Shown here: positions 1-29,039 of the stretch, in pieces
Numbering within the stretch: the first letter of the stretch is position 1
Layout: every line of letters begins with the position of its first letter
Assembly (NCBI GenBank): GCA_008632985.1
Contig: QPGO01000262.1
Coordinates: forward strand, 1 to 64,000
Length of the DNA stretch: 64,000 bases
Source of the DNA: Psammoneis japonica
Lineage: Eukaryota
Direction: 5' to 3'
Notes under the pieces: model-generated
What the model saw: only the letters and a program-made list of their open reading frames with translations
Database searches by the model: none
What the model was told of the DNA's origin: nothing
Translations under genes and position numbers: made by a program

Positions 1-399
1 TCTGTGGTGCAGCCCCAGCAGCCTGGTTCTCAAAATCTTTTGCGTGCTTTTCAAGGCAGACATCCCTCATGATCTTGGTTCTCTGGATGCCGAGAAATGG
101 AAATCACAGTGGGCCGCTCCAAAAAACACAAGCACATGAACACACAGATCTGTCTTTTTTACATGGATTTTTTTTAGCTGTCCACCTGGGCTGCCAATCT
201 TGATCTTTGTCAGAGCTTGAAAGGGCAAATGGAATCCTGCATTTTTTCATTCAATGCCCAACGATGCCACCATGACATTCAGCACCCATGACGGCTCAAG
301 TTTTGTCACCTTGTGGCAACAAGAAGAGCCTTTGTAGAACGGGAGCAATGCATGTGATCATGAGGGTGTTGTCTCAGCATCATGAAGCACTTGTGATTG

Positions 400-1450
400 G
401 CTTGTGTTTGATTTTAGACACAGCAAAACCATGCAGCAGATTTTGCAAACAGCGGCAATGGCGGCCCTGTTGTTGCAGGAAAAGGGACAGGTGACCTTTC
501 CATTGAATCCTCCACATTTGTTTTAGCCACGTGAGGTTCCATCATCGCGCTCGCCTTGGCTCTGGAGGCCTTGCAGCTTGCATTTGTGATGACACAACAA
601 CAGTGCAATTTTTTGCATGACAAACAATGCACTGTGTTCTTCACATGAGTTGCCACAGCTCATCTCATCTTTTGCACTGTGGATCATTGCTCAATCAACA
701 TTGTCAACTGCACTGAGCGGCGCGATGATTGGTTGATGAGAAGTTGCCACAAAAGGGATTCCAAAGCACCGCTGCGTTTCACGCCCATTTTTGTTATTGA
801 GATTCCTTCTTGTTTGTGTCACAAGGCAAAAAATCTGGCAGACGTGCCTTCGCATCTTCCAGATTTGTGCAAAAAAGACACAAATCCATGTGCTCATGAC
901 CCGATGATTCCGTGCAACACAAATTTGTGTTTTCATGTTTTCTGGAGTGACCCAGCATCAGCAGAGCCACAATGAAAAGAGCTGGCAAACAACGCCACCT
1001 TCAATGAACTTGCCTTGCACATTGTGTGGCTTGCGTTGCATGGGCAGCAACAAATGGCACAACACACTGCTTCCTTTCAATGCGGTGAAGCTGATGTCAT
1101 TCTTTCAACATGCTTGCTGGTTTTGCTCATGGTCTCTGTTCAACCATTTGCTTGTCAACCCATCTTTTCAATGGCACCAGGCACCCACTCCTTTGAATCT
1201 TTCATGCTTCCATGATGCTCAGCTGTGTCCTTGCCCATGTCTCTGATCCAACACAACCTTGCTGTGCCCTCTTTCAGCAGACCCTTGACAACTTCCCCAC
1301 AGCAAGGTCCTCCAGTGATTGTCTCTTTGCCTTCATCCAGCGAGCTTGTTTGCCACAATCCACTGACATGAGTTGTGCATTTGGGTTCTTGATGGCTTTC
1401 CAACTGGCCTCTCTGGCTTCTGTGTTGGGATTTCATGGCTTGCCAATTGG
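400..1450 (-). pseudogene. Highly degraded LTR-retrotransposon (Ty3/gypsy-like) reverse transcriptase remnant
   Basis: Minus-strand peptide scraps resemble gypsy RT (CHLLLPMQRKPHNVQGKF ~ YxYLRLPMG; FAQIWKMRRHV..IIAPLS ~ YRDMWxRRSHILAPL). Frames are broken and the DNA is TpA-depleted. Confidence 0.3.
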
Positions 1451-2039
1451 GGTGTGCTTGCTGGTCTCACCAACCCCCAAACTCACTGCATGGATTGCAA
1501 ACACAGCCATTTTCTTCACTGCTGCAGACAATGGCAACATTTTCATGTGTTGCTCACTGCATCTTCATGGGTTCTGCAGACTTGGCGCCCTTCCAGCCTC
1601 TTGTCTTGTGCCTCACTGTGAGTCTAGAAGGCAGCGGACATTCAGGGGATTGGGGTTGGCAACTGAAGGCCTTCATGTGAAGGGCATCAACAATGATGGG
1701 AGCAATGCACATTTTTGCAAGATGAGTCACAGTGCAAAGGATGAATCTCTGCTTTCTGTTGCTGGGGTGGACATGTTGGTGACTCTGAACAAGACAAAAA
1801 CTGCATGCATGGGTGACTTTAGAGAGCAGCTGCTTTGGTCCAGGGCACTGCCACCACCTCAGCAGGACTGTGCACTGATGACATGACACAGCAACACTGC
1901 CAAATGGGAGCAACAACCACACACAAATGCATCCAATGTGCAGCACACACACAAACATGTGTGCTCATGAGTTGCTGCTGTGACAGCAGCCAGGAAAACA
2001 GGGAACAAATCTGCGTGTGTGACTGTGTCCATTTGTCCA

Positions 2040-2136
2040 CCTTTGGCAAGTTTTGCAAGTTTGTCAACTTTGGCAATTTTGGCAAGTTTGGTGACTTTGG
2101 TGACTTTGGCAAGTTTGCTGAGTTTGGCGAATTGGC
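2040..2136 (+). repeat. Short array of the 9-bp satellite TTTGG(CA/TG/CG)A(C/G)
   Basis: About 10 tandem units such as tttggcaag, tttgtcaac and tttggtgac; same unit as the arrays at 3.5 kb and 13.2 kb. Confidence 0.9.
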
Positions 2137-2155
2137 AAGCAATGGGAGCATCTCA

Positions 2156-3383
2156 ATGTTTGTCAAGGAACAGATTGCTGGTGGCAACATGGACACTTCA
2201 AATTGGTCAGGAACTTGGGAGGAATGGGCAAAAAAGGTGGCAAAAAGGCAAATTAACAATCGCAGAAACACGGTGTGTTCGGCTGATGGGGCAGAGGCAA
2301 TGGCCCGCAAGCCAAGTGACCAATGTGTGTGGTTCGAGAGTTGTGCGCATCTCACAAGAAGATGACGGTGATGCTTCATCCATGTGGGCGTTGTCACTGA
2401 CAAAGAGGGAAAGGAAAAAGAAAAGAAACTCAAGGCGGCAGTCAGGAGGAAAAAGCAAGGCAGGAAAAAGTCAAGCCGGAACAAGAATGAAGAGAATGAC
2501 ATCCCGTTTGTGCCGACATGGGATCCGTTTAGCCTGGACACCATCACCGGCAGCAAACAAAGGAACAAGCAGGCATGCAAGTGGTTCTGTGATCACATCC
2601 TGCCTCAAACCATTCAAAAGCAGGCACGGAGCAGCACCATCAAAACTGGGGACGCACAGGTCTCACAGTTGTTTGCGGTCAGTGACAAAGCTTTGGCGCT
2701 GTTGGCCATGGAGAATTGTTGGCAGGTGTGGGCATGCAGGAACAAGGAGGAGGCGGTGGAAGAATTGGGTGAGGAAATGGAGCCCGAAGAAACAAGGCCT
2801 GCCCCTCAGCACATGAAGCCAAAGAAACAATGAGTGTCTTGGGGAGACGACGGAATCAATCGGTTCAACGATTTGTGCCAAGAGGTGACGAAAGATGGAG
2901 ACTCCAAGGAGGGAAAGGAGTTTGAAAAGCGACACGCAGAGATCAAGAAAAGTGAGCACGAGAAGTCTAGAGAAGCAAAAAAGAAGAAGAAGAAAGCACC
3001 GACCGGTGATGCGGAGAAGGTGAAGGCAATGAACAGCCCAATGGCGGAGAGCCGCAGGGACGACAACAGCAATGACAATGAGCAGGAGCAAGGTGCAAAA
3101 GGCAAAACGAATGACGGAGGAGACGAGTCCGATGGAGACGAGTCTGATGATGATTGTTGGCTCAGTTTGAGAGAGTTGCAGCAAGAAAATGTGTGCACAG
3201 TCAACACAGCACTCGGTCATTGCACTGCAGATGCAACAAGGGATTGACTTGGCCGATGAAATGCTTTTCTTGTTTAAAATGATGTTTGCGAAAATTGACA
3301 AACCAAGGATTGTGCGGCAATGCAATCATGCACTGGCATGTGGCAACAAGGCAGAGGCAGAAACATTGATGTGGACACAGTGA
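2156..3383 (+). pseudogene. Disrupted transposon-associated hypothetical gene, copy A (SDxALALLxMENxW...WxDDGIxRFNxL motif)
   Basis: ORF pieces 2384-2833 and 2834-3247 are in frame across one TGA. Motifs WSGTWEEWAKK, ACKWFCDHIL, SDKALALLAMENCW and GINRFNDL match copy B on the opposite strand. Confidence 0.55.
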
Positions 3384-3542
3384 AAAATGGCACACATGAT
3401 TCTTGACAAGTCATTGAAACATTGGTGCCAAACTTGCAACTGGAGGTTGGCCTGTCATCACACGACAACAATTTTTTGCAACATTTCGACAAATTGTCAT
3501 CGTGCAAATCTGCACATTTTTGACATTTCGTGCACTCTGATG

Positions 3543-4400
3543 AACTTTGGCAACTTTGGCAACTTTGGTGAGTTTGGCAACTTTGGCGAGTTTGTCAACT
3601 TTGGCAAGTTTGGTGAGTTTGGCAACTTTGGTGAGTTTGGCGAGTTTGGTGACTTTGGCAAGTTTGGCAACTTTGGCAAGTTTGGCAACTTTGGCAACTT
3701 TGGTGAGTTTGGCGAGTTTGGCAACTTTGGTGAGTTTGGCAAGCTTGACAACTTTGGCAAGTTTGGTGAGTTTGGCGAGTTTGGCAACTTTGGTGAGTTT
3801 GGCGAGTTTGGCGACTTTGGCAAGTTTGGCAACTTTGGCAAGTTTGGTGAGTTTGGCAAGCTTGACAACTTTGGCAAGTTTGGTGACTTTGGCAACTTTG
3901 GCAAGTTTGGCGAGTTTGGCAACTTTGGCAACTTTGGCGTGTTTGACAACTTTGGTGACTTTGGCAACTTTGGCAACTTTGGTGACTTTGGCAAATTTGG
4001 CAACTTTGGCGAGTTTGGCAACTTTGGCGAGTTTGGCAACTTTGGCAAGTTTGGTGAGTTTTGCGAGTTTGGCAAGTTTGGTGAGTTTGGCGAGTTTGAC
4101 ATTTTTGGCAACTTTGGCAAGTTTGGCGAGTTTGGCAACTTTGGCGACTTTGGCAAGTTTGACAACTTTGGCAAGTTTGGTGACTTTGGTGACTTTGGCA
4201 AGTTTGCTGACTTTGGCAAGTTTGGCAACTTCGGCAAGTTTGGCAACTTTGGCGAGTTTGGCAACTTTGGCAAGTTTGGCAACTTTGGCAAGTTTGGTGA
4301 GTTTGGCGAGTTTGTGGCAACTTTGGTGAGTTTGGCGAGTTTGACATTTTTGGCAAGTTTGGTGACTTTGGTGAGTTTGGCAACTTTGGCAAGTTTGGCA
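3543..4400 (+). repeat. 9-bp tandem satellite array (~860 bp)
   Basis: Continuous tttggcaac/tttggcaag/tttggtgag/tttggcgag/tttggtgac units. The FGN/FGK and LAT/LAS ORFs are translations of the repeat. Confidence 0.97.
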
Positions 4401-4878
4401 AGGCATCAGAGCGCGAAACACAGTGATCCTGACCACCCTTCTTGCAGGTGATTTTTGACACCATTGCAGGCACAAATGCAACAGTTTCATGTTGAGTGAG
4501 TTGTGTAGAACGTGATTTTTTATCATGTGTCACAGCATTGCATTTTTCACCATGGGACCCCTCCTTTGCCTGTGGGACCCCTCCCTTGGCTGTCAGAATT
4601 CTGTCACTTTTTACCTTTTGAAAGCAATGTTCACAACGTTTTGGTCAACAACAATTTAGTGCCAATCGTTGCGTTGCATTGGTTGAGAGAACCTTCCATT
4701 GCATGCGCTGGTTCTGTTGCATGCACTGGTTGTCAAACGAAAGGTTGGATCATAAAACAATGATCCCTTTGGTGCTTTGTCAAACCTCACAACTGTCAAC
4801 ATTGAAGCCCACTACATTGCTTGTCCTCTTTCCATTGTCACACCAACAAAAGCCTCCGCTGCCTTTTCGTGCCGCAGC

Positions 4879-6116
4879 TCACTCACCATCTGCATCTACA
4901 CTCGTGTCGCTTTCCGCATCACTGTCCTCCTCCCCTTCATCACTGTCCTCGTCTCCTCTGTTCTCGTCCATTGCCTCTTCCTCCTTCTCCTTGTCGTCAC
5001 TTGAAAGCTCTGTCGTTGCCTGTGTTCTTGCCTCCTCCACCTGCTTTTTCTTTCTTTTTGATCCCTTGCCTCTTTCGTCACTCTTCCTTTTCTTGCCTTT
5101 GCTGTGCCATGTGTCGAACTGAATGCCCTCCTCACTCAACCTGTCTTTCTTTGCTGCCGCAAGCAGTTTGTTGAATCGCTCAATCCCTGCATCTTTCCAC
5201 GAGTCTCATTGCCTTGACAGGTCCGTGCACTTGGGTGTTGGTTCCGACTCTTCCTCATCTTCTTCGTCCGAACCCCCCCCCTGCTGCAACAGTCTTGTCA
5301 TGACGTGCCTTGTGCTCCCAACTCTTCCAGCAGTTTTCCAATGTCAACAGCGCTGGAGCCTCGTCGCTCGCTGCAGCCAGACCGGTTGCCTTTGTCTCAC
5401 CCGACTCCACCTTCCTTCTCCATGTGGCGGTGCTCTTTGTGAATTTCAGGATGTTTTCGTAGAACCAAGCACATGCTTCTTTGTTCTTGCGCTTGTCCTC
5501 CACAATCGTTGTCACAGTCTCCTCCCCCCAAGTCGCCAGGAACGGCTCTTCCTCTTCCGTGCGATCGTTCTTCTTCCTCTTCTTGCTCTTCTTCCCACCT
5601 CTGCCCTTTGCTGCTGGCTTCTGACTGCGCATCTCCTCTGCTTCATTCTCTGTCAACACAACTTCAACAAATGAAGGTGCAGTTGTGTCAAGTGCAGCTG
5701 CACTCAACATGCCGTGCACCACAAAACACTTGCCAGCCGTTGCATTGTTCTTGATCGCCTGAGTGACCGTGCTCCTTTTCGCATTGATTGCGTGCATGAC
5801 GCACTTCTTTGCTCAGTCTTCCCACGCTCCCGCCCAGTCTCGCTTGCTGTGATTTCCTCCGGCTGTCTTTTTCCTGATGAGCCGCGACACTTTGCCGCTG
5901 CTTGCCATGTCCGCCTTGACAAGGAATTTTGCCTTTGGGAAAAGTTCCTTCCACGCCACCTCTTCTGCCTCTCTCTTTATAGACTGGTGATCCCCAGTGG
6001 CTCCCACCCGCACCAACGCTGCGGCCAGCCTTGGGCTTGTTGGCTGATCTCCAGCCACCCCCGCAGTTCCTTTCTTCTTCTTCCTTGCCATTGTCGCCAA
6101 TTGTGGGTGGCTCCAT
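4879..6116 (-). pseudogene. Disrupted transposon-associated hypothetical gene, copy B (paralog of 2156-3383)
   Basis: Motifs DWAGAWED, ACAWFYENIL, SDEAPALLTLENCW and AGIERFNKL occur across frameshifted pieces, followed by an acidic C-terminal tail. Confidence 0.55.
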
Positions 6117-7089
6117 GCCTTGTGTCCCAGTTGTTTTTGCCGTTGGAAAATTTTCAAACCTCTCTTTAATGCCAAAAATCTTGTGGTTGCCATCAATGAC
6201 TCCTTTTTCTCAAATGCAACACAATTGAGAATTGACCAAATCTTTTGATGTGCACGCAATTTGTCCATTTTGCCACTCCTTGCAATCTTGTGAAAATTTT
6301 GAATCATTGCGAATTCCAGTTCAAACCTCTCTTTTGCTGCAATTTCGAAATCCACTTCCACAGTGTAAATTGCTTGCAAAAGCACTTTGTTCAAAACATC
6401 ATTGTGAAACGTGTGCCTGCAAAAGTTGTTTTTGCTGCAATGAACAAACCCCTCACCTGCTTTGACGTTGTTCCGGTTTGCTGTTGGGGCCCAAGCACAT
6501 CCATCCTTTTGGTGCCAAATCGTTTTCTCTGGTCCAATTCGTCATCACCCTCTAACTTCGTAACTCTCAACTTGATGTGTCGCCCGATGTCGGAATGGTC
6601 AGTCATGTGGGTGAAAGCCCTCGTCTCCGCTCTGACCATTCTCACGAATTCATTAACTTCAACGCGACAACGTCTCTCCACCCAATGCTTTTCCTTTCTC
6701 CTGCTTTGAAATTTCTCCCGCTCACCATCCTCCTTCCGGATGATGTCCAGCATCCATTCATTGACTGTCCATGGAGATGACCTGAAGAACTCCATTTGCT
6801 CACAGAACCAAAGTCTTTCATGGTTGTCTCGCACGATGTCACACTGGAGCCACTTCGCCAGTTTTGGTGCATCGCAAACAATTCCCTTCTTGTCCATTGC
6901 AAGTCCGCATGTGCCTCCCCTTGCCAATGTTTCTCCCAACGGTCCGCAAGTGCCTGTCTCGTCCATGCCATGGGTCGGCATGCTGACACTCGAATGCAGC
7001 AAGCTTTCTCTGGCACAGAAAGCAAAAACAATGTCAGGTTCACCTGGTCCTGCTCCATTTCTTTCAAAAGAAGTGGAGGGAATGCGTTG

Positions 7090-7601
7090 GAGCAGGAGGT
7101 GACCTCACCGTCAACCTTGTTTGCAAAACCAAATTCCGCCACAAGAGCGGGAAAGACACTCACCACGCACACCCAGACTGCAACAGCGAAGGACCGGTTC
7201 ACGACTGGGCGAATGTTAACTTTGGCACAACTGGGGGGGAATTGTGCTTCCCGTCAAGACTTCGCTGTTTCTTCCAAAGGGAAAGCGACGGTGACTTGTG
7301 TGCGGTCGTTCACTCTTGCACGTGCCAGCCTGACAAGTGTGCCATGGTTGAACGAATGCAACACACCGACCTGGTCAGTCGCTGGCAATTGGACCAAGTG
7401 AAGAACAACAACTTGTCCTCTGCTGAACAAACAGTGCACTCACCCAAGCTTTTCTTGGTGCCCATCGACGCTGTTGGCGACAAATTGTTGGTGTGTGAGG
7501 AGCAACCCGGCATTGCTGAGACACACGACAGGACAAAGCATGTTTGGGTGGTTCAAGACCGCAGAAACACATGGGGAGAGCTGTTTCACAAAAGCAGGTG
7601 A
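7090..7601 (+). pseudogene. C-terminal fragment of a Plavaka-like transposase-associated protein
   Basis: Reads THHAHPDCNSEGPVHDWANVNF...CFPSRLRCFF, matching the (F/Y)RAHPxY...GPWYDWAxVxF...PAxxxxF motif I recall from Plavaka-type proteins once H/C are read back as Y. Confidence 0.5.
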
Positions 7602-7637
7602 AAAGCATGTGAGCATCCGACAACAGCAGCAGAAAAC

Positions 7638-10600
7638 TTAATTGGGGCAACAAGGACAACAGAGACAACGTTCACTCACCTGCTTTGGCAATCTACTCAC
7701 AAATCCGACTGGGAACCAGTGTGGCAAATAACTCCCAGGCCATTTCCTCAACTCATCCCTGAAATCAGGAATTCTCCTCTCGAAGGACAGGAGTGGGAAC
7801 GGCTCCTTCGGGTTGCAATTTCCACACTCTCGTAGGAACTCTAGGACTGAATCAGCTTCTTCATGTGGCAGCGTTTCCCGAATTTCCTGTTCTGTGACTC
7901 CCAAATGCAATGCTTCCTGGTCAGATGGTTTTCCCAGCCAATCCACACGGTGCTCCTCCACAATCTCCTGGGAAGCCTGGCAGAGCGTCACTGTTTCACA
8001 TGCCATGTCCTGTGTCATGGCCTGCACCAGTGCGCACTCCAAAATGTCATCCAAATTGTGCATGGTTTGGGCCAGTGACCAAATGGTGCACGGGATTATG
8101 ACGCGGCACCTCTGGAGCTTTGGATGAAACAACGTTTCCATCACATCCCTCAGGTTTTTGCCAAAGAAGCGATTTCCGAGTGTTGACTGCAGCCACTCCC
8201 CTTTTTGCATCCAGCGGCAGTCCATGCAGATCTGAACAAAGCCACTTTTCTTAAAATCAATCACTGCTCCAAACCGCGTCTTGACCCTTTGGGCAAAATT
8301 CTTGGCGGACATGTTGCAATTCAAGTGACAAGCGGGGCTGCCATCCTGTGGGGACACAGTGCATGCACGAACATTTGAGTTCATAAAGAGATCCTGAACG
8401 ACTTGACACCTTGCCTCATCTCTTCTTTGCTGAGTGGATCGGACAGCCTCCACGCCATGGTCCGAACATGTCTCATCTAATGTCAGGTTTCCAGCCATGA
8501 CGGGCCTCGTCATGCAAAGCCACAGGACATTTGCACCTCCGTCAGGAGGAGTCACACTGCGGACCAAGATTTGTGAAAAACATGACACCAAACAATTGCA
8601 GGAGTTCTTCGGCTGTTGACAGACTTGCTCAAAAATGGCATTCACACATTTGTCCATGTCAAAATCTTGCACTTGTAAAAGGACTGGTGGCTCGGGTTGA
8701 TCGTACGCGGTTGCGTTGCTTGTGTCATCTTCATCGGATTCTTGATCCTGCGACTGAAGGATGACAGAATCTGCCGTGACAATTGGAACGCGGCAGTCAG
8801 AATCAGGACACGAGCAGTCCTCTGACAACACAGACTCCTCCAAAGACAATGAGCTGAGTTCATTGTCTGCGGCGAGTCAAGACTCCTCTGAATCCAATGA
8901 ACTTAGTTCTTTCTCCGCGTCAAATCGACAATCCTCCAAAGACAATGAGCTAAGTTCATTGTTTGTGGCGAGTCTAGACTCCTCCAATGACAATGAGCTA
9001 AGTTCATTGTCTGCAGGTGGTCCATCAACAGCAGAGAAAACACTGGCACCGTCTGATTGCACGGCTGATTCACACACAAATGTGCGCGATTCAGCACTGT
9101 CTTGTGATTGGCAAAGGTTGGGGTCGTCATCAACACACTCCAAAATTTCACACTCGGTTGACCCATGTGGCTTGCGGAGATGCTGCCCAGAGGGAGAGAA
9201 GGCAAACAGGTCTTGTCCTGAACAGGGTCCTTGGAAAACACAACCAAAAATGTGGGTGCAGCGATTGTCTGAATTCTCACAAAGTTTGTGCTCGGTTCCA
9301 TTCCAACTGTGCTCTTCGGTTCCTGTTTCGGATGACATCCTTTGGTGCATGAGCGGCCTTTCTTCCAGTTGAATGTGCCCCAGTTGTGCAGCAGCTCCCG
9401 AATTGAAGACAGGACAGACAATGTCATTGAGTCTTGGATGGTCTTTCACTGCGACACCTGCCAGCACCAGACATTGCAGCACCAACATGAGACGAATCTC
9501 ACTGAAATCTGCTCCCCGGTCTGCCCAAGCATCACATGCTGCCTTGCACCGTTGTTCCATTAAGTTGGGACAGAACTCATTGGTGTTGACATTGTTGTTT
9601 ATCCAGAGAAGCACAGCATGGATTTCTTCCACCATTGCATCAATTGGGTCATTCGCGGTTCCGACGCAACAAGGGTCTAGAAATGCATCGCAAAATTTCT
9701 GGTGCATCAAATTGGCAGGGCTGATCCTGCCCACCTGTGGGTCACCGCATGGCACCCCAAATGTGTTCTGCAAGCAATTGGCAAAGTTGACAAACGGGTC
9801 AGCACCTTCGCAACAAAGGTTGGGAAGATGCTTGTCCCCCACGCAGTAAAATCGGTGATGTCCGGTGGGACAACCAGCATGGATCGCCAAATGAATGACT
9901 CGTTTTGGGTTGGGACCCAATCGGCACACAATGTTCTTGAAATGGCAGATCACTGTGACTGGGGCAGATGGGTGGAAGTCCCCAACTGGGAAAGTTGGGA
10001 ACTTGAGTCGATCCATGCACACCTCGACACATGAAGAGTCGCCACCTCCACCAATGAGAACATTGTCCCATGGCCTGTTGTTGTCAAGGGAAAGATGCTT
10101 GAATGCAATGCTGGAAAGCAACACATCGGGGTGGGTGGGACCATCATGCTGCAAGTCCAAGTCTTTAAGTGCAAAATCAAGCTGAGCTTGATTGTGGTGC
10201 ATGCGAGTGAGCATGGGCTTCATGTCGCACTGGTCGTCGTGGTGTTCACCAATGGTCCTTCTGCTGTTGGCAACAACCTTGAAGGACCAGACATCGCCAA
10301 AGGCATCCATGACAAAGAAGCAACCGGCAGCTGTCTTCCTGTGTCAACGCCAGGTGCAGTTTTTATTGTCACAGTGACCATCACAGACTTGACCCCGGGA
10401 AATGCACAATCCCTGCATGGTGACGTCCTCACGTTTGAAGAAGAGACAGCCCATTTTGTTGCCCAACTTTTGCGAGTGTTCCTCGTGCCGAAGTGACCAG
10501 TCAAATGGTGGTGGATTGCTCAGTTTTTTCAGCTCTGCCTCATTTTCGCAAAGCTGAATCGAGCCAAGGATGTCGGCTGCCATCGCCTTGATTTTGGAGG

Positions 10601-12649
10601 TCTCGTTGGTGTCAAAGTTGTCATCGGACTCAAAGACATCAAGTCCACAAGCAGCCTTTGGTTTGGCCAGTTTGGCAGAACCAGGCATCTTGGGGTGATG
10701 CGCTCTCCCAGCACAACCGAACTTTGTCCTGCGTGCTTCGCCGTTTTGAACTGCAGCCGGTCCGTCACGTGTCAAATCGGACTCTCCCTTCAACAAAATA
10801 AATGGAAGAAGGGTGGGAATGCACACACGAAGGCACCCGAAGTGCCCCTTGCACAGAGAGTTGGCCTGACGGGCAACGGAGAGTTCCTTGGAGAAGTGAT
10901 CAAGGTCAGGAGGGTGCTTGGTTCGAACACGAGATGCGGTGGCGGAATCACACAATGGCACACTGTTTGAGAACGTGCGCCAGTTTTCCCGCAAGTTGTC
11001 CGCCAGGCAAAAGTTGGCGGCAGAATGATGAAGCACCCGATCAGTGTTGGTGGCTTTGTCAATGATGTGCAGGTGTGACAAATGAGAAGAAACTTCCTCG
11101 GTGGTGACGGGTCGACACTTGGATGGGTCAAAGCGATTGCGGAGTGTGGACAGGTCCAGCCACGACATGTCGTTGGGGTCACTGGGAGGAGACGTAACCG
11201 TGGGAGGATTAGCTGAAACAGAAGGAGGAGAGGAATGAGGTTTGGACAAAGGACCTTTGGAGGTAGAAGCAGGTTTTAGGTTTTCCACAATTTCTGAGAG
11301 TGACGGAAGGTCGGCGGTGAGAGTCCGGTGTGCCTCCCTGGATGACGGAACATTGCCAGAAAGTGATGGAGGGGCTTGTTTGTTGCGAGATGCAGGCTTG
11401 GCCTTCTTGTTGGGAACGGTCAAGGAAGGCTCTGGTGGGTCGTGAACAATCATGGGGTGTGAGAAGAGACATTGAGACGACAGACACAGGTGGAAAGGCA
11501 GAAGGCGGGAGGTGGGGGGGGGTTCTTGCCATCGTACAAACAGGTGCCATCCTTGCGGGTCCTCCCAATTTTGCGCTTGGTTTTGGAGTTGTAGATTCAT
11601 TTGTCATCGTCTTCCAAGCAGTCGGCCCTCTGACCACGCATTCTGCAATGGAGCATTGTGAGCTGCTTGCTGCACCCAGGTCGGACACCAATTTGCTCCT
11701 TGGGACAACGCTTCCCAAATTCGTGGTTCAACATGGAATTGATTTTTTCTTCACAAGCCTCACGGCGTGCAAGGGAATCGCCTTGCATTGTCACCGTGTT
11801 CTTTGTGTCACCGGTTGAGTCATCAAGGAACCCCTTGATCTTGTCCGCCTGGGCACCAGGATCGTCAGCATCGCACACAACCAGAAAGCTGTTGACAAAG
11901 AGGCACCATTCCTTTTGGGTTTTGACGTGATGGAAAATCTTCAAGAACCAATGGTCCATGTCCTTGGGCTTGCACTGAACGTGGTGCATGACAATGTCAG
12001 TGACAAAACAGGCACTGTGGAGGTCTTGGGCTTGATCGTTGATCAAACTTTGGAGACTTTTGCACCGTAAAAATTGGAAACAAGGCTTGCCGGATAAAGG
12101 ATTGTTTGGGTCGTCTCCGGCAATGATCGTGTGAACAAATTCTACCATCGCCTGGATGTTGTGGTGAAGAAGCGTGCGGTTGTGCTGTTCTTTTTCTGTC
12201 TCTCCGGATGTTTTGGAGAAACACAGAGCCTCCTCAAGATTTTCATGTCGTGGGACATGTTCGCCTTTCGCACAGCGGGATTTCTCAGTGGACCAACCAC
12301 GAGTCATGATGTGAGACCAAATGTCGGGACAGCCAAGGGTTTTCCTTGCAACATCGTTGGTGCGGATGACTTCGGCAACATGAGGAACACGGCGCAACTT
12401 CAGCTTGTGACAAAGGAAGGGAAGAGCAAGGAATTCTGGAGAGGGGGTCCAATTCATCGACTCCAAAAACTTCTTTTTCGAGGCACGCGTTGCAACCGTG
12501 CTTTTGAGCTTGGGTTGGAACAATTCGAATCCGAAGCCATTGGTGAAACATTCCATTTCATCAAAATTTAAGTCCTCGGTGATTTGGAAAGAAGGGTCAG
12601 GGTCGACCTTGTTGTCAGACGGGGTAAAGTCGTTAGACGCCATGGCCAA
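7638..12649 (-). pseudogene. ~5-kb (~1650 codon) disrupted gene of unknown function, probably transposon cargo
   Basis: ORFs 10344-11600, 8877-10310 and 7638-8849 are in one frame separated by single stops; 11597-12649 is one frameshift upstream. Only about 3 Tyr in total. Confidence 0.55.
8833..9016. repeat. Four 48-bp tandem units with a palindromic core
   Basis: Units start at 8833, 8881, 8929 and 8977. The core gacaatgagct(g/a)agttcattgtc reads DNELSSL on both strands. Confidence 0.85.
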
Positions 12650-12683
12650 CAGTCAGTTGCCGATTCACGTAGAATGCACAGGA

Positions 12684-12742
12684 TTCACAACAGCACACCC
12701 TCTCGTCAAAAGCATTTTGGGGAGAGGGTGTGCTGTTGTGAA
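12684..12742. repeat. Perfect 21-bp inverted repeat (hairpin) upstream of the 5-kb gene
   Basis: ttcacaacagcacaccctctc (12684-12704) pairs with gagagggtgtgctgttgtgaa (12722-12742). Confidence 0.9.
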
Positions 12743-13200
12743 ATGGGTGGAGAACTGCGCATGTAGAAAAGGCACCAAAATGCAGGCAGGGGCCCATTGA
12801 CTGGACAACTGGAGCGTGCAGGTGGAAATGATGAGACAGTGTTCCTCTGGGTGGCTGCGTGGCTGACTGGGGCGAGGGAGAAATGCCATTGTCTGTGGCG
12901 ATGCAAGGCTGCGGTGAAGCTGTTGAAAAGCACTGTCAAAGTTGACGATTCCACAAATGTGTGAAAAATTGACAAAACAAAAAGCGCCACTCAACAATGA
13001 AGGGCTTGTTGAAATTCTTTGGCAACTTAAAAGCAAAATAAAATGGCAACAATTGCCAAGATGAAATGGCAATGATGAGTGTCAATTGACTGTCAAAAAA
13101 CAAATGAGCTGTCACTGATTTTTGCACACAATTGTCAAAACAAATGTTCCAAATTTTCCAAAGGAAAGTGAGCAACACTGTGTTGCAGCCTCTGATGACT

Positions 13201-15052
13201 CAAGTTTGGCAACTTTGGCGACTTTGGTGAGTTTGACCACTTTGGCAAGTTTGGTGACTTTGGTGACTTTGGCAAGTTTGGCGACTTTGGCAAGTTTGGC
13301 AGCTTTGGCAAGTTTGTCAACTTTGGCGAATTTGGCAACTTTGGCAAGTTTAGCAACTTTGGCAAGTTTGGAGAGACTGGCGAGTTTAACAACTTTGGCA
13401 AGTTTGGTGAGTTTGGCGAGTTTGGCAACTTTGGTGAGTTTGGTGACTTTGGCGAGTTTGGCAACTTTGGCAAGTTTGGCAAGCTTTGGTGAGTTTGGCA
13501 AGTTTGGTGAGTTTGGCGAGTTTGACAACTTTGGCAAGTTTGGCAACTTTGGCGAGTTTGGCAACTTTGGCGAGTTTGGCGAGTTTTGCAACTTTGGCAA
13601 CTTTGGTGACTTTGGCAACTTTGGTGACTTTGGCAAGTTTGGCAACTTTGGTGAGTTTGGCAACTTTGGCGAGTTTGGCAACTTTTGCAAGTTTGGTGAG
13701 TTTGGCGAGTTTGACATTTTTGGCAACTTTGGCAAGTTTGGCGAGTTTGGCAACTTTGGCTGCTTTGGTGAGTTTGACAACTTTGGCAAGTTTGGTGACT
13801 TTGGCAAGTTTGGTGATTTTGGCAAGTTTGGCAAGTTTGGCAGCTTTGGCAAGTTTGTCAACTTTGGCAAGTTTGGCAACTTTGGCAAGTTTAGCAACTT
13901 TGGCAAGTTTGGTGAGTTTGACAACTTTGGCAAGTTTGGTGAGTTTGGCGAGTTTGGCAACTTTGGTGACTTTGGTGACTTTGGCAAGTTTGGCAACTTT
14001 GGCGAGTTTGGCAACTTTGGCAAGTTTGGTGAGTTTGGCGTGTTTGGCAACTTTGGTGAGTTTGGCGAGTTTGACAACTTTGGCAAGTTTGGCGAGTTTG
14101 GCGAGTTTGGCAACTTTGGCGAGTTTGACAACTTTGGTGACTTTGGCAACTTTGGTGACTTTGGCAAGTTTGGCAACTTTGGCAAATTTGGCAACTTTGG
14201 CGAGTTTGGCAACTTTGGTGAGTTTGGCAACTTTTGCAAGTTTGGTGAGTTTGGCGAGTTTGGCAACTTTGGTGAGTTTGGCGAGTTTGACATTTTTGGC
14301 AACTTTGGCAAGTTTGGCGAGTTTGGCAACTTTGGCGACTTTGGTGAGTTTGACAACTTTGGCAAGTTTGGTGACTTTGGTGACTTTGGCAAGTTTGGTG
14401 ACTTTGGCAAGTTTGGCAAGTTTGGCAAGTTTGTCAACTTTGGTGAGTTTGTCAACTTTGGCAAGTTTGTCAACTTTGGCAAGTTTGGTGAGTTTGGCGA
14501 GTTTGGCAACTTTGGCAAGTTTGGCGAGTTTGACATTTTTGGCAACTTTGGTGAGTTTGGCGAGTTTGACATTTTTGGCAAGTTTGGTGACTTTGGTGAG
14601 TTTGGCAACTTTGGCAAGTTTGGCAAGTTTGGCAACTTTGGCGAGTTTGACAACTTTGGTGACTTTGGCAACTTTGGCAACTTTGGCAACTTTGGTGACT
14701 TTGGCAACTTTGGCAACTTTGGCGAGTTTGGCAACTTTGGCAACTTTGGCAAGTTTGGTGAGTTTGGCGAGTTTGGCAACTTTGGTGAGTTTGGCGAGTT
14801 TGACATTTTTGGCAACTTTGGCAAGTTTGGCGAAGTTGGCAACTTTGGCGACTTTGGCGAGTTTGACAACTTTGGCAAGTTTGGCGACTTTGGTGACTTT
14901 GGCAAGTTTGGTGACTTTGGCAACTTTGGCGAGTTTGTCAACTTTGGTGAGTTTGTCAACTTTGGCAAGTTTGGTGAGTTTGGCGAGTTTTGCAAGTTTG
15001 GTGAGTTTGGCAAGTTTGGTGGCTTTGGTGACTCATTTTTCAAGTTTGGCAA
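13201..15052 (+). repeat. 9-bp tandem satellite array (~1.85 kb)
   Basis: Same unit and orientation as 3543-4400, with recurring sub-blocks marked by the variants tttgacatt, tttgtcaac and ttttgcaag. Confidence 0.97.
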
Positions 15053-20720: not shown

Positions 20721-20741
20721 GAGTGACTCTAATGTGCAATT

Positions 20742-21090
20742 GGGGAGGCGAGCGCAGCATGCAACTGTCATGCGCACGTGCAATTGTGCGCAACATTGTT
20801 TGTGTGTCAATTGCACCACAGTTGTGGATGCGTGCAAAGAACAGAACAACCACACAGAGTTGATCGGAAGTCAAAAATTGCAAACACAATTGATCGACAA
20901 TGTTGACATCTTGCGTGTCAATGGCAGTCACATCCACACAATCTGTTGTCACAAGCACATTTGCCAACAGGCTTTTTGAAGTGCAAAAGCTTCAGGCCAT
21001 TGAGAACTCATTCAGAGAAACCAAAAATCACAGAGCAAAATTTGGTCTCACAATTTCCACTTTTTGCACTTTGTTCTGCTTTTGTTCATG
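20742..21090 (+). mobile_element. Polypurine tract and 3' LTR-like segment of a gypsy element
   Basis: ggggaggcgag follows the integrase end. The downstream sequence recurs inverted at ~62990-63365 and partly at ~16005-16125. Confidence 0.6.
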
Positions 21091-22642
21091 CTCATGCTTC
21101 AAGCACAGAGTGCAGCTGCTGACAGCATGCCAGAAAATGGGTTGTCTGTGTCCAGGGGGGCGCGCTTTGCAGGTCAAATGCATGCAGCACATTGCCCAGT
21201 GCTTGGTGCATGCATTCAATGACTGCATTTGCTCGTGGATTTTGTGCAGCTGTGGCTTGCATTTTGTGCCATGGTTCTCTCCAACCATGACTCTGAGCTG
21301 GTTTTCTGAGTTGGTGTCCAGCAAACTCACTTCCACTGTCACACGCAATTGACTTGCACAATTTTTGCGTGGTCTCTGACTTACAATCAAGCAATGGGAA
21401 TCATTGAAAAATGTTGCAAGAGTCACAATTGGCATTTCACACAGGGAAAAATGCCAAATCGTGTGGAAGTGTGTGTGCAATGTCGTGTGAGAGGGTGACT
21501 GGAGCCAGCAACTTTTCGGGAACTCAACTGAAATGTTGTCTGACCAAGGGTGTTTTGATTTGCATGGTGAAGAGCAGCACCTTTGGTCAGATGACATTCC
21601 AGCTGATTTCCCAAGAAGTTGACACTCGAGCGCGGATGGGCAGACAGACTGGCAGCAATTGTTTCTGGTGCTCTTCCACACAATTTCTGCACAATGACTC
21701 TGAGGGCCACAATGGCTCCTGTTGTTTCTCCACCAAAAGCACAGACTTGCACAAATTTGAGTCTTTTGCAACACTGACAAGATTTGCGTCAGTGCTGCAA
21801 TGTCGTTGTTTTTGTGCAATGCATGTTTTTTGTTGCAACAAACGAGCCAAAACACAGCTGTTGATTTTTGGCAAAATCATTGCCGCCATTTTGATGTCAA
21901 CACAAATGTTTTTTCCATGATGCCATCTGCCAGCACATCTTTCACCTGCTGACAAATCTCTGTGTGAAGTGCACTTGCATGCAATCAGCATTGAGCCCAC
22001 TGAGAGAGTTCATGATGCATGTCCCGTGAGGGCTTGTGCGCCAACCAAAAACCAATTGAATGTTCACACTGCAGACACCTGCAAAAAACACATTCACTTG
22101 AGCATTTTGCATGCAAATGCTTTTGATCCAGGTTTGTTGCTGGCACTGCAGGCACCTGCAAAAAACACACTCGCTTGAGCATTTTGCACGCAAATGCTGC
22201 GCGCACAAGAGACACATGATTTGTGCTCAAAATTGGTTGTCGTTTTGTGCGTCACCTGGGACTTGAACATGTCTGGCCAAGGACATCTGCCCAGCCACAT
22301 CTGTTCCAATGATCCAGCAACAGCTGCGGATTTGCTTTTTGCTGGGATCTCCACAACTTCAAACCATCCTGTTGCTGGATCAGCCATTGTCAAACATTTC
22401 AGGGCTGGGAGTCTCTTCTTTCCCTTGCCATGCATCTTGTGTGGCCCAACAAGATCCACACACAGTCGTCCCCACGGCACTGCTTCTGCACACTTGGGAA
22501 GCAAATGCCCACATTTCTTCTGTCTCTTTTTGAACTCTTGGCATGCCTCACATTTGGACAATTTTCTTCTGTTTTCACACAAGGCAGACCACCACAAGTG
22601 TTGTGAGATTGCTTCTTCAGCTCCATTTGTGCCTTTGGTGGT

Positions 22643-23038
22643 GACGCGTTCCAGCCCCAGGTGGGAGCTCGCAGTGCTGACGTGTGACACAAATCATTTT
22701 TATCATCCGTCACATGTTTTGCACGTGCATTTCTATGTGTGACATTAAAAAAAAATTGTCCAGACTCGCTGTCTTGCGAAGCCCCAGACGTTTTACACAA
22801 CAAATTTACAGAAACAACAACAAGCCAGTTGCATTCTTCAACATCTGAAGAATGTAACTGGCCAAGTAAAAAATGATGTGCTTCAATCATGGGCGAGTTT
22901 GTGCGTTCGCAAAATTGCCTCATTTTCTGTTGGCGATCATTGACATTTTAATTGCCGCACAATTTTACTGCGGAGCTCGCACGTAGAAGTCTACGGGCCC
23001 AATGTCACACGGATTCCCACCTGTGTCTGGAACACGTC
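22643..23038. mobile_element. 396-bp MITE, family 2 (TSD TGGT), inserted in the gypsy integrase region
   Basis: tggt|gacgcgttccagccccaggtggga ... tcccacctgtgtctggaacacgtc|tggt. Confidence 0.88.
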
Positions 23039-23146
23039 TGGTGGATTTCTTCACTCTCATTTTCGCGTGAATTTGCACAAAATTGTGGTTGACAATGATC
23101 CGCCATCAAGAAGAACGTGTGGAGGCTCATTCTTTGCTTTGCCTGG

Positions 23147-23631
23147 GGCGTTTTCTGGCTGCACCTGAACCAAAATGTGAAGAAAAATGACATTTGCACA
23201 ATTTTTGCACGGTCTCTGACTTGCGAATGAGCTTTCACCACAAAAGGCACAGATTTGTTCAAATTTTGATGTTTTGCAACACTGACAAGACTCGTGTCAG
23301 TGTTGCAACATCATTGTTTTTGTGCAGTCAATGTTTTTTCATTGCGATGAATGAGTTGCAACACAACGGACAATTTTTGCCAAAACCTTTGAGGATTTGC
23401 ACACTGTCAATGTTCAAAAGTCAGCACAAAACATTTCTGTGTGCATTTTGCAGCAGCGGCCCACCTGCACAAAATTCTCTGCAATGTGAGTTCTGACACA
23501 TGCTTGCATTGAACACAAAAGCCAGAGTGCGCAGTCATTTTTATGAGCAGCCTCAATGCAGCACAAAGCTTGTGCAAATCATGTTCAAAAGGGGCTGTCA
23601 TTTTGTGCATCACCTGGGACTGGAACATGTC
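23147..23631. mobile_element. MITE, family 3 (related TIR; end cacctgggactggaacatgtc)
   Basis: Internal sequence is homologous to 62276-62851 and 21353-22273; flanks ctgg/ctga. Confidence 0.6.
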
Positions 23632-25449
23632 CTGAAGAGGCGCTCATGCAAGCAACAACTGCTGGACTGGCACAAATTGCTTTGATCCTTTTTCTGGGCT
23701 TTCCAACGTCCAGCAGTGCGCAAGACTCCTTGAGCGGTGCCAGTCATTCTTCAGAATTGCTGCACGTCATTTTTTGAACTGACAACTCTTTTTGCTGAGA
23801 CTGTCAGAATCACATCCCCTGCTCTTGCACTGTGCACTGTTGTTTGAAAAACTTGTCTTGAGTGTTTTTTGAAGTGTCTGAAGAGCCATGGCATTCAACT
23901 CTTCTTTGAGAGCAGCGCTGTCATTGTTGCGATGCAATCACATGTGATTGCCATTCAAACAATGCCGTTTTGGATCACATTTGCAATTTTCATGGCGTTC
24001 TTTTGATGCCAGATTGGCGGCCAATTTTGGGACCATGGTTTGACCCATCTTTGGCTTTTGATCCAGGTTTGTTGCTGGCATCAGCCTTGCCATGAGTGGA
24101 GTCCAAGGCATCCTCAGCAACCTCCAGATGCTCCAAAAACTTGACCAACTTGTTGAAGGCATGCTTCAAAATTTTGAAACCTTGAAGGGTCAACTGGCAC
24201 TGCCATTTGCAAGGTGCAAGGTTGTGGAGGACATCCTTGAGCTCATCCTCCTTGATGCTCTGATCTTCTTCAAAAGGAGGGCAGAGCTTGAGGTCTTCAT
24301 TGACTTCTCAGACCCAAGCAGCAATTTCCCTGATCTTCGTGCTCTCTGGTTTCTTGAGATCATGCCACAGATGATGCTTTTGAATCTGAGGTGCATTTTT
24401 TTTTGGAAGACATGTCTCAATTGCAAGGCACTGTTGACAATTTTTGAAGGCTGTGGTTCTCAGGTTTGCAAGCACCCTTTTTTCCAACAAATGCCTGAGT
24501 TTGTGCAAGTCAAGAGCATGTCACAATGAAGCAAGTTTGGCGCAAATCATCAGTCAGTTGACAGCTGTTGAGTGCTCCATTTGTTGTTCGCAACCAACTG
24601 GCCAAGAACTGGTTGGTTGGCTGGTGTTTTTGAATGACTGATTTGGTGCAATGCAGTGCTGCAGCTCAGCTTCAATCCGGGCATTGCTCCCATGCTCTTT
24701 CTTGGAATCTTGGCTGCATCCAGCCCCACGTGCACCCTCTTCTGCTGCCAATGGAGCAGCCCACCATGAATTGCTTGAGTTGTCTCATGCACTGTCTCTC
24801 AATGCAGCCAGCTCCTTGTTGGCCATTGGTTGTTGGGTTGTTCCCTGTGACTTTTGAGCTCACAACTTGTGACTTCTGTCAAGAAAGTGCACAGTTGTTC
24901 CCTTGTTTTCTGCTCTTCTCAAACCTTCTTGAGATGTCATTGTTGCACTTTTCTTGTTTGGCTTCTCCCTTGCTTGTTCCTTGAACTCCTCTTCTGCCAT
25001 TTTTTGTGTGGCCCTTTGTTCTGTTGGTTCTTGGGGGGGTCTTTCTCCAACAGATCTGCTCCACATGCAGCCCCAGGTGATGCACACAACAACAACCCAC
25101 TTGTTTAAGTGCAAACTGTGTGTCATTTGTGTTTGGGTCATTTCTCACAGAAACAGCTCACACAGATGAGCTTTTGTGTGTGTCCAGAGCATGGGCAGTC
25201 ATTGAGCATTTGTTTTCAACAGCACTCAAGCCCCCATGGGGCACCCACCATCAATTTCTCAGTGGGCTCAGCGCTGGTTGTGAGACAGCACATTGGGCAC
25301 AATGAATCTTGTGCCAGCAGAGCCCCTTCAGGAAAACACCACAAGTGAGCATTTTGTGCTCACATGCAAAATTTTGATGCGCGCAAATCTTCGACATTTT
25401 TGTTGAAAATGATCCACTGTGTTGAGACTCATTTGTCACTTGTCACAAT

Positions 25450-27200
25450 GAAAAAATTGTTGGCACAAAAACAATGACATTGTGACAATGGCACACTTCT
25501 TGCCAGTGTTGCAAAGTGCAGAGATTTGTGCACAAATCTGCAACCTTGGTGGTGAAAACTTGGCTGCAACTCAGAGACCATGGAGAAGTCATGCAAGTGG
25601 TGTCATTTTTGTGCATGGTTTGGTTCCTCATGTGCAGCTGGAGCATGCCAACAGAGTGAAAGCACTTGGGAGAGCTGTGTTGCCCTCGTGCTCTGCAACA
25701 ACCAGGGAGGGCATGAAGGTTTCACCACGCACAAGTCTTCCTTTTCTGGTTGGGTGACCTTGGTCATTGAGCTCAATGCTGCAATCTGACAGCAAATTGC
25801 TGCAGTTGTTGTTGCTGCTCTTGTGCGCTGTGCGCCACACACCAAAGTTGTTCTTCAGGCAGAGCATGTGCGAAAATGTTTCTGCACATGACACGTGCAT
25901 CCTCTTGTTTTCAGAAAGGCTCTTTTCCAACAAGCTTCTCTCACAACAGGTCGACACACACAACATCAGATTCACCAACCGTTCTTTGAGTTGCTCTGGC
26001 GACAGCAGCACACAACTGCTCTTGTCGCACAGCAAGTGCTGCATTCATCAACGCAAACATCAGCTTGCGTGATGCCAGCACTGTGTCAAATTGACAACAG
26101 AAAGCACTTGCGACTCTTTTGGCAATTTCTGTCTTGCTGTTCCTGACAAGAATTGGATCTCTTTGCTGCCAGCCACTCCTCCTGGCCCAACCTGCCTTGT
26201 TTTGTTTTCATCCACAGGAGTTGCGGCATGTCTTCTGCTGCGCCTCTGGCAGCTCTGCAAGCACACCATCCATCGTCGTTGGTCTGCAGTTCTGGGCAAA
26301 GTTTGGCACAGCATGCTTGTTTTCTCAAACTGCCTTGCACCAAACATGAGCCTTTTTGTCATTGGCCACCCACTTGCTTGGATTTGGTTGTTTGCCTCTG
26401 AACAACAGCTGCCATGTTCCCCTTTTTTGTGGTGCTTTTCCCCGCTGTTTGCCCACAATGATTGCTCTTGTGCATGGTCTTGCAAGGTTGACTCCCCTTT
26501 TTGTGCTTCTTGTGATCTCTGACAAACAGCTGGTCATCTGGCATCTTCAATGTCACACTTTGACAAGCTTGCTTCAAAAAAGCTCAGCCACAACTTTCAA
26601 ATGCATCAAGGACTGCAGGTGCACATGACAGCAGCACGTGATGCCCTTTTCCAGGCCTCATCACAGTTCTTGTTTGTCCTTCCATTGGCCAGTTGGTTTT
26701 CATGTCAGCACGTGACACTCGCCAATTTTAAACAAATCAGCACACTTCACCAGCAACAAATTCCTGCCAGCTCACATGAACAGCAGCTTGCCGCTGCACT
26801 TTGCTCTTGTTGTGCACAACACGCCATTGCGTCATGGGCATGCTGACGTGTTGACGGCACTCTCATGAGTCGGGCATGCTGTCCCATGCAACAGCATTGA
26901 CCCTTGGCCACCGCTAGGTGGAAGATTGTTGGAACATCATTGGGGTGCGAGGTGGTTTTCAGAGGGCCGCAGACAGAGCATTTGATGGCGCCACAGCCAT
27001 CTGTCCCCAACAAGCGTGCAGTGTTGCCATTGTCATTGGGGGACAGCTCTGCCTTGGCCAAGAAGAAGCCTCTCTTGAGCCAGCTGCACTCTGCAACAGT
27101 TCTGGTGCGACCCAAGGCTTTCACAATTCGCTGCTGCTCCTCACCCTCCTTCAGCCATGTCTCAGAAAGAAGAACTTCAATGTTTCCATGTCTCTTCTGC
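25450..27200 (-). pseudogene. Very degraded transposase-like remnant, possibly Plavaka-like
   Basis: Only weak motif scraps (GQCCCMGQHARLMRV; LMFGARQF); TpA-depleted. Confidence 0.25.
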
Positions 27201-27750
27201 ATCTAAAGCTGGCGGGCAACCTGTGAAAGAAGGCACACACACCAAGCATGATGCACTCCACAGGTGGTTTTCAGCCTGCTTGCCCACTCTCTTTCTGACA
27301 ATGAGCACAAAATCTCAAAATCATGCGGCAAAGGAGAACACATGGGGAACGACATTGTTTTTGAGAAAAAAGCAATTGTGTTCTGTGCTCTTGTCGAAAA
27401 TTTTAAAAATGTGCTGGCAAGAGAGCTCTTGTGGGAGGGAGACGCACGGGAGGAACAATAAAAAACGTCTGTTGTGTGTTACAAAGTCCTCGGAACTAAA
27501 CAACGCATTCATGTATCGAAAGAAATCTTGTGTGTGGCTCAGGACACTAAAGAATGATGGCAGCCTAAACTAACTGCTGGCGTATATCAACTACGTTCCC
27601 TAAAGTACGTTGTACTCTCATAAATGACAGCGGTTTGGCGAGAGTCAACATGAAGAGACTATATTGAATTTTCTAAAGTGACCTCAATCCGAGGAAGGGC
27701 TAACTCGAGCACTCCAACGTAAGAAGGCCGACTCCCATCCGAGGAAGGGC

Positions 27751-29003: not shown

Positions 29004-29039
<36 letters not shown>

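Follow-up and report, generated by a model that had tools for sequence, protein, structure and literature searches.

In transposon DNA of the diatom Psammoneis japonica, the dinucleotide TpA is turned into TpG or CpA by a mutational process whose rate at each site follows the flanking bases. The DNA under study is a window of 64,000 nucleotides (contig QPGO01000262.1, positions 1 to 64,000; the assembly has 91 Mb in 597 contigs), and it is diatom nuclear DNA, because the named relatives of its gene at 28893–29531 are diatom fucoxanthin-chlorophyll proteins. TpA (TA below) falls from about 40 per kb in the gene regions to 1–5 per kb in five sharp-edged blocks, in which CA and TG are raised. By comparing copies of two unrelated element families, one Plavaka-like and one copia, we established the direction of the change, its symmetry between the strands, its specificity for TA, the independence of neighboring hits, and the rule that sets the rates. 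This rule is one of graded rates over about 12 bp and contains no discrete protected motif. On balance, we favor a host enzyme, probably an adenine deaminase, that works site by site in silenced chromatin.

Context Bias of Surviving TAs

A two-state segmentation of the window on TA content separates depleted segments (179 TAs in 46,855 bp) from normal ones (688 TAs in 17,145 bp; see Table 1). Elsewhere, 99.7 kb of a 200-kb sample (20 stretches of 10 kb from other contigs) are depleted. An initial annotation had proposed that the TAs left in depleted DNA lie mostly in TAGA/TCTA and TTAA contexts. All 14 motifs it quoted are found within 2 bases of where it placed them, and the four further positions read TCTAC, TCTAG, TCTAC, and GTAGA; one example, at 22983, lies in a TA-normal island (22701–23002) that we excluded from the counts. 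The bias itself is confirmed. Of the 88 survivors in depleted DNA at 300–27403, to which all counts on 88 below refer, 45 have these contexts, versus 72 of 631 genic TAs (Fisher test, p-value 1E-16). Genic DNA avoids the stop codons TAA and TAG (TTAA is found at 9 of the 631 genic TAs) and is thus a biased baseline; the TG and CA sites of the same depleted DNA, again without the island, are a fairer one. Against the flanks of these 5,606 sites the survivors still do not match the background (51% versus 17.2%; binomial p-value 4E-13).

Taken separately, TAGA/TCTA accounts for 28 of the 88 survivors (10% of the TG/CA background, p-value 2E-8) and TTAA for 17 (7.3%, p-value 2E-4). The word “mostly” agrees with the 51% but overlooks the largest class, TAAA/TTTA (39 of 88 versus 20%, p-value 3E-7), with which the contexts cover 69 survivors (78%). 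TAT/ATA makes up 15 of the 88 survivors as against 307 of the 631 genic TAs, and ATAT is found at none of the 179 depleted TAs of the whole window, compared to 43 of its 688 normal ones. The 99.7 kb of depleted DNA from other contigs contain 387 TAs, among them 70 in TTAA and none in ATAT. The hexamer TCTAGA is 8-fold enriched among survivors, and at two sites it is kept in 27 of 27 cells of the alignment of Plavaka-like copies.

Direction and Specificity of the Change

The element at 4402–13096 is probably Plavaka-like, judging from its homologue P0124, which carries PF18759; its own mutated open reading frames (ORFs) give no Pfam match. We aligned 17 close copies out of the 77 and 59 matches listed. 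The final figures are based on 15 copies (two pairs of copies share history), and the ancestral TA sites are inferred from the copies, so that sites resolved alike in all of them go unseen. Over the 506 inferred TA sites, these copies have 998 TA, 2,591 TG, 2,653 CA, and 3 CG. Transitions other than those at TA and CpG amount to 0.07%–1% per copy, 15%–30% of CpGs are lost and 70%–85% kept, and transversions and indels are scarce. The 1,098 Tyr residues of three outside homologues align mainly to Cys (259) and His (215; 474 together) and seldom to Tyr (36), from which it follows that the change runs from TA to TG and CA. Outgroup Trp is kept in 378 of 632 cases.

The copia family gives a second measurement. 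Its 11 young copies are 98%–99.5% identical and have about 45 TAs per kb; with them we compared eight more diverged copies (two of the 11 and six others). Summed over the eight, 375 of 2,396 TA strand-sites have changed, compared to 24 of 3,795 at AA, 29 of 3,813 at CA, 14 of 4,061 at GA, and 51 of 2,844 at CG. TA changes 25 times as often as AA in copia and about 95 times as often in Plavaka, where A to G changes outside TA reach 0.96% at AA, 0.5% at GA, and 0.4% at CA. Both strands are hit equally in copia; copy L180, for example, has 55 TG and 57 CA. Selection on the reading frame was considered as a cause of survival and rejected, as in-frame Tyr codons of copia are not spared (0.45 kept, versus 0.50 and 0.45 out of frame). 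In a natural pair of one TA-rich and one depleted sequence, 8 of 123 TAs are kept (p-value 0.001) and the direction is correct in 72 of 109; this third comparison is in line with the flank rule described below. A 470-bp family (L043–L069), the pair L040/L041, and other copia groups enter only the pooled survivor set described below.

Flanking Bases Set the Rate of Loss

Counted against reconstructed ancestors in 16 Plavaka copies, retention is graded: 45% at TTAA, 41% at TAAA, 36% at TAGA, 29% at CTAG, 12% at GTAC, 1% at RATAY, and 0.3% at ATAT. We fitted a competing-hazard model in which the direction of each loss separates upstream from downstream effects (433 Plavaka sites, site bootstrap), with positions numbered on the strand that undergoes the A to G change. 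This gives relative rates of 1.99 for T, 1.91 for C, 0.65 for G, and 0.41 for A at +1; 1.73 for A and 0.60 for T at −2; 0.53 for A at +2; 0.46 for T at −3; 0.69 for T and 1.40 for G at +3; 0.79 for G at +5; and 0.81 for C at −6. A CpG abutting the TA slows its loss in Plavaka (×0.41 when after, ×0.18 when before). TTAA, TAAA, TAGA, and CTAG survive because such sites are slow on both strands. Outside the modeled element, 93 of 125 survivors in the window fall in the slowest quartile of genic contexts.

The copia weights are nearly equal to those of Plavaka (−2 A 1.74, T 0.70; +1 C 2.1, T 1.6, G 0.75, A 0.40). When the Plavaka model is transferred to copia with a single slope, the log-likelihood gains 70.5, whereas the maximum among 200 context shuffles is 9.5. 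The flank preference thus belongs to the way in which TAs mutate: it is seen directly as retention per site across aligned copies, it carries over between unrelated element families, and, as Tyr codons in frame are not spared, it does not come from selection. The suggestion that such a preference is what an enzyme would leave is sound to this extent, although part of it is duplex or nucleosome geometry and not readout by an enzyme.

Upstream effects mirror the complements of the downstream ones (r = 0.71 over 12 pairs, closer with the CpG terms included); among the Plavaka pairs are +2 A with −3 T and +5 G with −6 C. In cross-validation on Plavaka, a symmetric model of nine parameters (5672) beats both the upstream-only (6049) and the downstream-only model (5915). 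A strand-specific preference for a pyrimidine at +1 overlies this symmetry. The faint A to G change outside TA also prefers a 3′ pyrimidine (AAY 1.6% versus AAR 0.3%; GAY 0.8 versus 0.25; CAY 0.6 versus 0.25; counted per copy, not per event), and the pattern recurs in copia. No 3′ pyrimidine bias is found for G to A. This difference speaks for chemistry at the adenine.

Losses Are Distributive and Patchy

Neighboring hits in Plavaka pick their strands independently (correlation about 0.01), and none of the eight copia copies has same-strand runs. The independence of neighboring hits indicates a distributive process; same-strand clustering, absent from both Plavaka and copia copies, was rejected. 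Targeting of hairpin loops is not favored either: in copia, loop features appear to add little or nothing (any loop ×0.99 over 226 strand-sites; anticodon-like loop ×1.48, with 17 strand-sites only).

The dose differs widely between copies and within them. Copia copies with 12–27 background changes have lost from 13 to 112 of about 300 strand-sites. Within copies L178, L179, L182, L162, and L181 (compared to L154:1–3371) loss is patchy: the interior has dense hits on both strands, and these end abruptly, around position 2330 in three of the copies and around 1200 in another. Contexts in the spared part are somewhat slower (median 2.7 versus 4.3), but the loss of 0 of 32 there in three copies is below what slower contexts alone give. 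In a pair of near-identical contigs, possibly alleles, 43 of 383 mismatches are TA versus TG or CA. Twelve of these lie inside a stretch of 460 bp where a depleted block ends (C41:511657–512115 versus C317); there the TAs are kept on one contig and lost on the other, which suggests that the edge shifted recently.

Helical Phase of Survivors

After tandem repeats and later copies are masked, the pooled depleted DNA gives 884 unique survivors. Their AA/TT plus W/S dinucleotide profile at 8–79 bp is anti-phase, with a best period of 10.1–10.2 bp (z = −6.2; AA/TT alone, −7.6), and they lie off the AA/TT lattice by −0.22 standard deviation (SD; z = −6.5). This shift is specific to TA, since no other dinucleotide departs by more than 0.04 SD and the value for genic TA is −0.007. 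A smaller survivor set has 8.6 times the power of context-matched nulls (p-value 0.002 over all periods of 7–14), compared to 0.5 times for genic TA. The range in which the bias was first noted gives, by itself, z = −2.2 for anti-phase (85 sites).

The rates tell the same story. TAs in phase are lost faster, with a hazard of ×1.19 per SD in Plavaka (reached in 0 of 150 permutations) and ×1.31 in copia (p-value 0.007); the period was chosen on a survivor set that shares one Plavaka copy, and with that copy excluded r is 0.17 (p-value 0.005). The effect is centered on the TA step, is strongest for survivors in fast contexts, and reaches about 160 bp. CpG loss has the opposite phase (r = −0.11, p-value 0.005). 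An in-phase period of about 11 bp was also tried; it fits the long range (z = +5.1) and fails at 8–30 bp (z = 0.7–1.6 versus −3.4), so that the anti-phase period of 10.1–10.2 bp is preferred. The spacing of survivor pairs modulo 10 is flat, and single-base GC profiles show nothing beyond +5; the phase is visible in dinucleotide profiles only.

The phase probably reflects the rotational setting of nucleosomes. As AA/TT is most frequent at sites with the minor groove toward the histones (PMC4081404), TAs would be lost faster in that orientation. We dropped the idea that survivors such as TTTAA and CTAGA, which are nucleosome-optimal elements (PMC3401446), are protected at minor-in sites; these classes are neutral or anti-phase. 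In the pooled depleted DNA, AA and AT steps are themselves slightly anti-phase with their own lattice, as if the nucleosome signal had been eroded through the loss of in-phase TAs.

A Candidate Mechanism and Its Relatives

The process is very probably a targeted and distributive one that acts on nucleosomal DNA; given such a process, adenine deamination is somewhat the likelier chemistry. Under this proposal, a host process would turn A:T into G:C at TA in transposon chromatin after insertion. Its target would be the nucleosome-wrapped duplex of the chromosome, hit at single sites, on either strand, in sharply bounded patches. Loss may be faster with the minor groove inward because the TA step is unstacked there or because the lesion is less well repaired: TA steps, thymines included, are unstacked at nucleosome pressure points (PMC3401446), and excision of inosine by AAG is less efficient at bases that the nucleosome buries (PMC10281986). 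The weakest step is the chemical one, in which a zinc deaminase with the TadA/ADAT fold, brought to silenced chromatin, would turn adenine into hypoxanthine.

The closest relative of this process is found in the chlorarachniophyte Bigelowiella natans (bioRxiv 10.64898/2026.01.13.699255), where A:T also goes to G:C almost only at TpA, giving TpG and CpA, where host genes are spared and foreign or mobile DNA is hit, and where the process is not constitutive (uneven between lines there, between copies here). Its de novo rate in mutation-accumulation lines is about 1000 times background, and an adenine deaminase (ADAT2) has been proposed, not shown, for the hypermutation of integrated viruses. P. 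japonica differs in lineage and in extent, with about half of a 200-kb sample depleted versus two regions and 124 clusters. The main text of that preprint gives no analysis of flanks, context, trinucleotides, nucleosomes, or periodicity, and its supplements may bear on the motif. The process in P. japonica works like TpA hypermutation in B. natans, and the two may share a machinery.

The flank rule resembles in part that of the TadA-derived editors ABE7.10, ABE8e, and ABE8.20, which change A to G, prefer a 5′ T and work best on TAY; their editing drops when A comes next and rises when C does (PMC10879117, PMC8989541). In contrast to them, the process here shows mirror symmetry in its flanks and appears to act on nucleosomal duplex. 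The genome encodes a dCMP deaminase, a TadA-like protein, one ADAT2, three other proteins with a deaminase fold, one weak match, and two A_deamin loci. The ADAT2 (L036) is a candidate; it has HxE and PCxxC motifs and an Asn at the place of TadA D108, an Asn present in all known eukaryotic ADAT2 (PMC10354150). Two gene arrangements were also noted: a tandem pair of dCMP deaminase domains (C41:505477–506590), and one open frame that joins a deaminase-fold domain to a 2OG-Fe(II) oxygenase (L035:313–1785, minus strand).

Several observations weigh against nucleosomal adenine deamination, or against parts of it. The change of a base pair shows neither A nor T as the attacked base, and the deaminases found look like an ordinary set, with one ADAT2 and none that stands out as the enzyme. 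The 5′ T preference of TadA editors is 25%–52% in the central window, and they are worst after A (PMC8989541), whereas TA here exceeds AA at least about 25-fold and AA is not the slowest context (second in Plavaka, level with CA in copia). The amphioxus deaminase BjADAT2 has TCG and GAA as its targets, with a preference for hairpin loops (PMC10354150); such loops add little here. As to the flank rule, the symmetric and downstream-only models tie in copia (786.9 versus 786.2), and the context model accounts for 40% of the between-site variance. Protection by an abutting CpG is weaker in copia (×0.86, ×0.46), absent in its youngest copies, and without a clear tie to the survival of that CpG (p-value 0.2). 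Finally, the bin at 70–100 bp has no phase (z = 0.1), and the protective G/C at +5/−6 opposes the long-range phase.

Other Explanations

An attack on thymine, by oxidation or amination, with the same targeting and chromatin setting, is the rival that survives best, though we consider it unlikely. The agent would be of the type of a base-flipping C5-methyltransferase or a dioxygenase, and the motif would read R-T-A-T-Y with the first T attacked, a formal reverse of repeat-induced point mutation (RIP) at YpA. Since all counts are symmetric in the base pair, they fit this reading equally well, and mirror-symmetric flanks suit a duplex-binding, base-flipping protein. The genome has 29 matches to PF00145 (C5 DNA methyltransferase), several of full length; diatoms have a RID-related DNMT4 of unknown function (PMC9998398), and the thymines of TA steps share in the unstacking at nucleosome pressure points (PMC3401446). 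On the other hand, the helical phase of CpG loss is opposite, and no TET/JBP match was found in the genome, a weak point as the control itself gave no match over the cut-off. We know of no precedent for T-to-C amination of DNA, which also counts against an attack on thymine. The 29 PF00145 matches, some with stops, exceed the few types reported for model diatoms.

Rather improbable, in our view, is an error-prone polymerase of the Pol eta/iota type that, when heterochromatin is replicated or repaired, would place G across from T at TA and leave a mismatch that goes unrepaired. Pol eta has hot spots at TA (changed to TG) and at AA (PMC7884765), and AA is second-fastest in Plavaka; the genome has five Y-family loci, and the hits are distributive. 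This likeness to the WA hot spots of Pol eta ends with the rates, AA being 25 to 95 times slower than TA here. For Pol eta, AA is near parity with TA. The scarcity of transversions and indels speaks against a polymerase as well, and both a nucleosome phase and mirror-symmetric flanks would be unexpected from a polymerase active site.

We regard as improbable a DNA mark at or beside TpA, e.g., N6-methyladenine, that would precede mutation or shield the fixed words TTAA, CTAG, and TCTAGA. Palindromic words such as TCTAGA are indeed among the best survivors, and a symmetric rate at the level of the site suits a two-step scheme of marking and mutation. However, survival is graded from 45% to 0.3% and is predicted by additive single-base effects that transfer between families; the palindromes GTAC and ATAT are lost (12% and 0.3% kept), and the non-palindromic TAAA survives as well as palindromes do. 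No MT-A70 match was found in the genome, in a search without a positive control.

Editing of the elements' RNA or cDNA during replication, in the style of ADAR or APOBEC, is very improbable. ADAR favors a U before the edited A (bioRxiv 10.64898/2026.01.13.699255), and there are the two A_deamin loci, but this explanation is largely refuted by the equal hits on the two strands and by the hits in a DNA transposon; a satellite is affected too, processive runs are lacking, most of the young copia sequence is intact, and the helical phase points to chromatin. Equally improbable is a compositional, selective, or assembly artefact: avoidance of TAA/TAG does inflate the contrast with genes, and ancestral Plavaka sites are inferred ones, but the bias persists when TG/CA flanks from that depleted DNA serve as the baseline, as well as in copia, where intact copies are the starting state, Tyr codons are not spared, contigs of sequencing run X1 (possibly the source sample) have the same depleted sequence, and the transfer from Plavaka to copia refutes it.

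Two further systems share the products or the pattern. RIP in ascomycetes (RID/DNMT4), which depends on homology and on the sexual stage, also leaves dense transitions at one YpA step, in repeats only and with sharp edges. RIP mutations are strand-coordinated; here there are no same-strand runs, and, where RIP changes C to T at CpA, TA is lost and CA/TG gained, as the outgroup Tyr residues and the young copies show. The process is not RIP, and it is not ADAR/APOBEC editing. CpG decay of DNMT5-methylated diatom transposons (PMC9998398) affects these elements too and likewise yields TG and CA; unlike TA loss, CpG loss is about eight times slower in Plavaka and has the opposite helical phase, and per copy the two are not tightly coupled (rho = 0.55, p-value 0.16, eight copies).

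The core process matches that of the B. natans preprint; what is new is its fingerprint, a graded and mirror-symmetric flank rule joined to a nucleosome-scale phase. A literature search, to which most subscription papers were inaccessible, found no diatom report of TpA hypermutation. It found one description of TpA-specific A:T to G:C hypermutation, in an unrelated alga and without an enzyme. The initial annotation expected the signature to identify the agent. Several agents can indeed be excluded with it, including editing at the RNA stage and simple protective methylation, but alone it names neither the agent nor the attacked base. With its 12-bp flank weights, mirror symmetry, lack of processivity, and nucleosome phase, the fingerprint allows a test for one shared machine and a scoring of candidate enzymes. 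A natural enzyme that edits adenine in duplex chromatin, if it exists, would be of direct interest for base editing. The scar itself, on about half of the sampled genome, affects the dating of repeats and also gene prediction, because two of the three stop codons and the Tyr codons vanish. More tentatively, one may imagine a dedicated defense enzyme of diatoms, and perhaps of chlorarachniophytes, that is guided to silenced transposons and deaminates adenine (or converts thymine) at TpA in nucleosomal duplex, with a preference for minor-in steps. If so, a natural double-strand adenine editor would have rewritten about half of the genome, wearing down the elements' own nucleosome-positioning signal.

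Organization of the Window

Table 1. TA-depleted blocks, TA-normal regions, and repeats of the window
Feature	Position	Content	Basis or remark
TA-depleted block, transposon and satellite	1–22700	85 TA, 3.7 per kb; CA/TG enriched, CG partly depleted	Two-state segmentation
9-bp tandem repeat	3400–4400	TA-free	
Putative Plavaka-like DNA transposon copy, internally deleted	4402–13096	51 of 369 inferred ancestral TAs kept, 178 now TG, 140 now CA	
Second array of the same 9-bp repeat	13200–15040	TA kept in three units (13351, 13387, 13892)	
TA-normal island within depleted block	22701–23002	11 TA	Segmentation; contains the example at 22983
TA-depleted block	23003–27403	5 TA, 1.1 per kb; sharp end at gene-rich region	Segmentation
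TA-normal host gene region	27404–37465	Fucoxanthin-chlorophyll protein, CXXC zinc-binding protein, SNF2 helicase, nitroreductase/EF-hand, part of Rrp15	Control
TA-depleted block	37466–40928		Segmentation
TA-depleted block	41546–50968	Helicase ORF 41526–43109 (+), DUF6589-like ORF 43792–48081 (−); Tyr 0.2%–0.3%	
TA-normal host gene region	50969–57132	Peptidase M64, PT-repeat ORF	Control
TA-depleted block	57133–64000		Extends at least 10 kb beyond the window

The helicase and DUF6589-like ORFs converge, and their first 38 residues are nearly identical, which suggests long terminal inverted repeats and a single element; the DUF6589 match has an E-value of 0.04, below the cut-off. The 9-bp tandem repeat stands on both sides of the Plavaka-like element, and its unit variants differ by TA and CG products. 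The depleted DNA contains two TA-rich islands, the one at 22701–23002 and another at 40929–41545, which is high-copy by contig depth yet has 68 TAs per kb.

Two sequencing runs touch the window. Run X2 covers the gene bins and leaves most depleted bins without cover; we did not use it as evidence. Contigs of run X1 cover 24416–27832 piecewise, with 5–10 differing letters per piece. At position 26380 run X1 has an A and hence a TA, in the slow context TAGA, at a site that is TG in the window, the sole such case among 24 listed differences from run X1 in 24678–27035.

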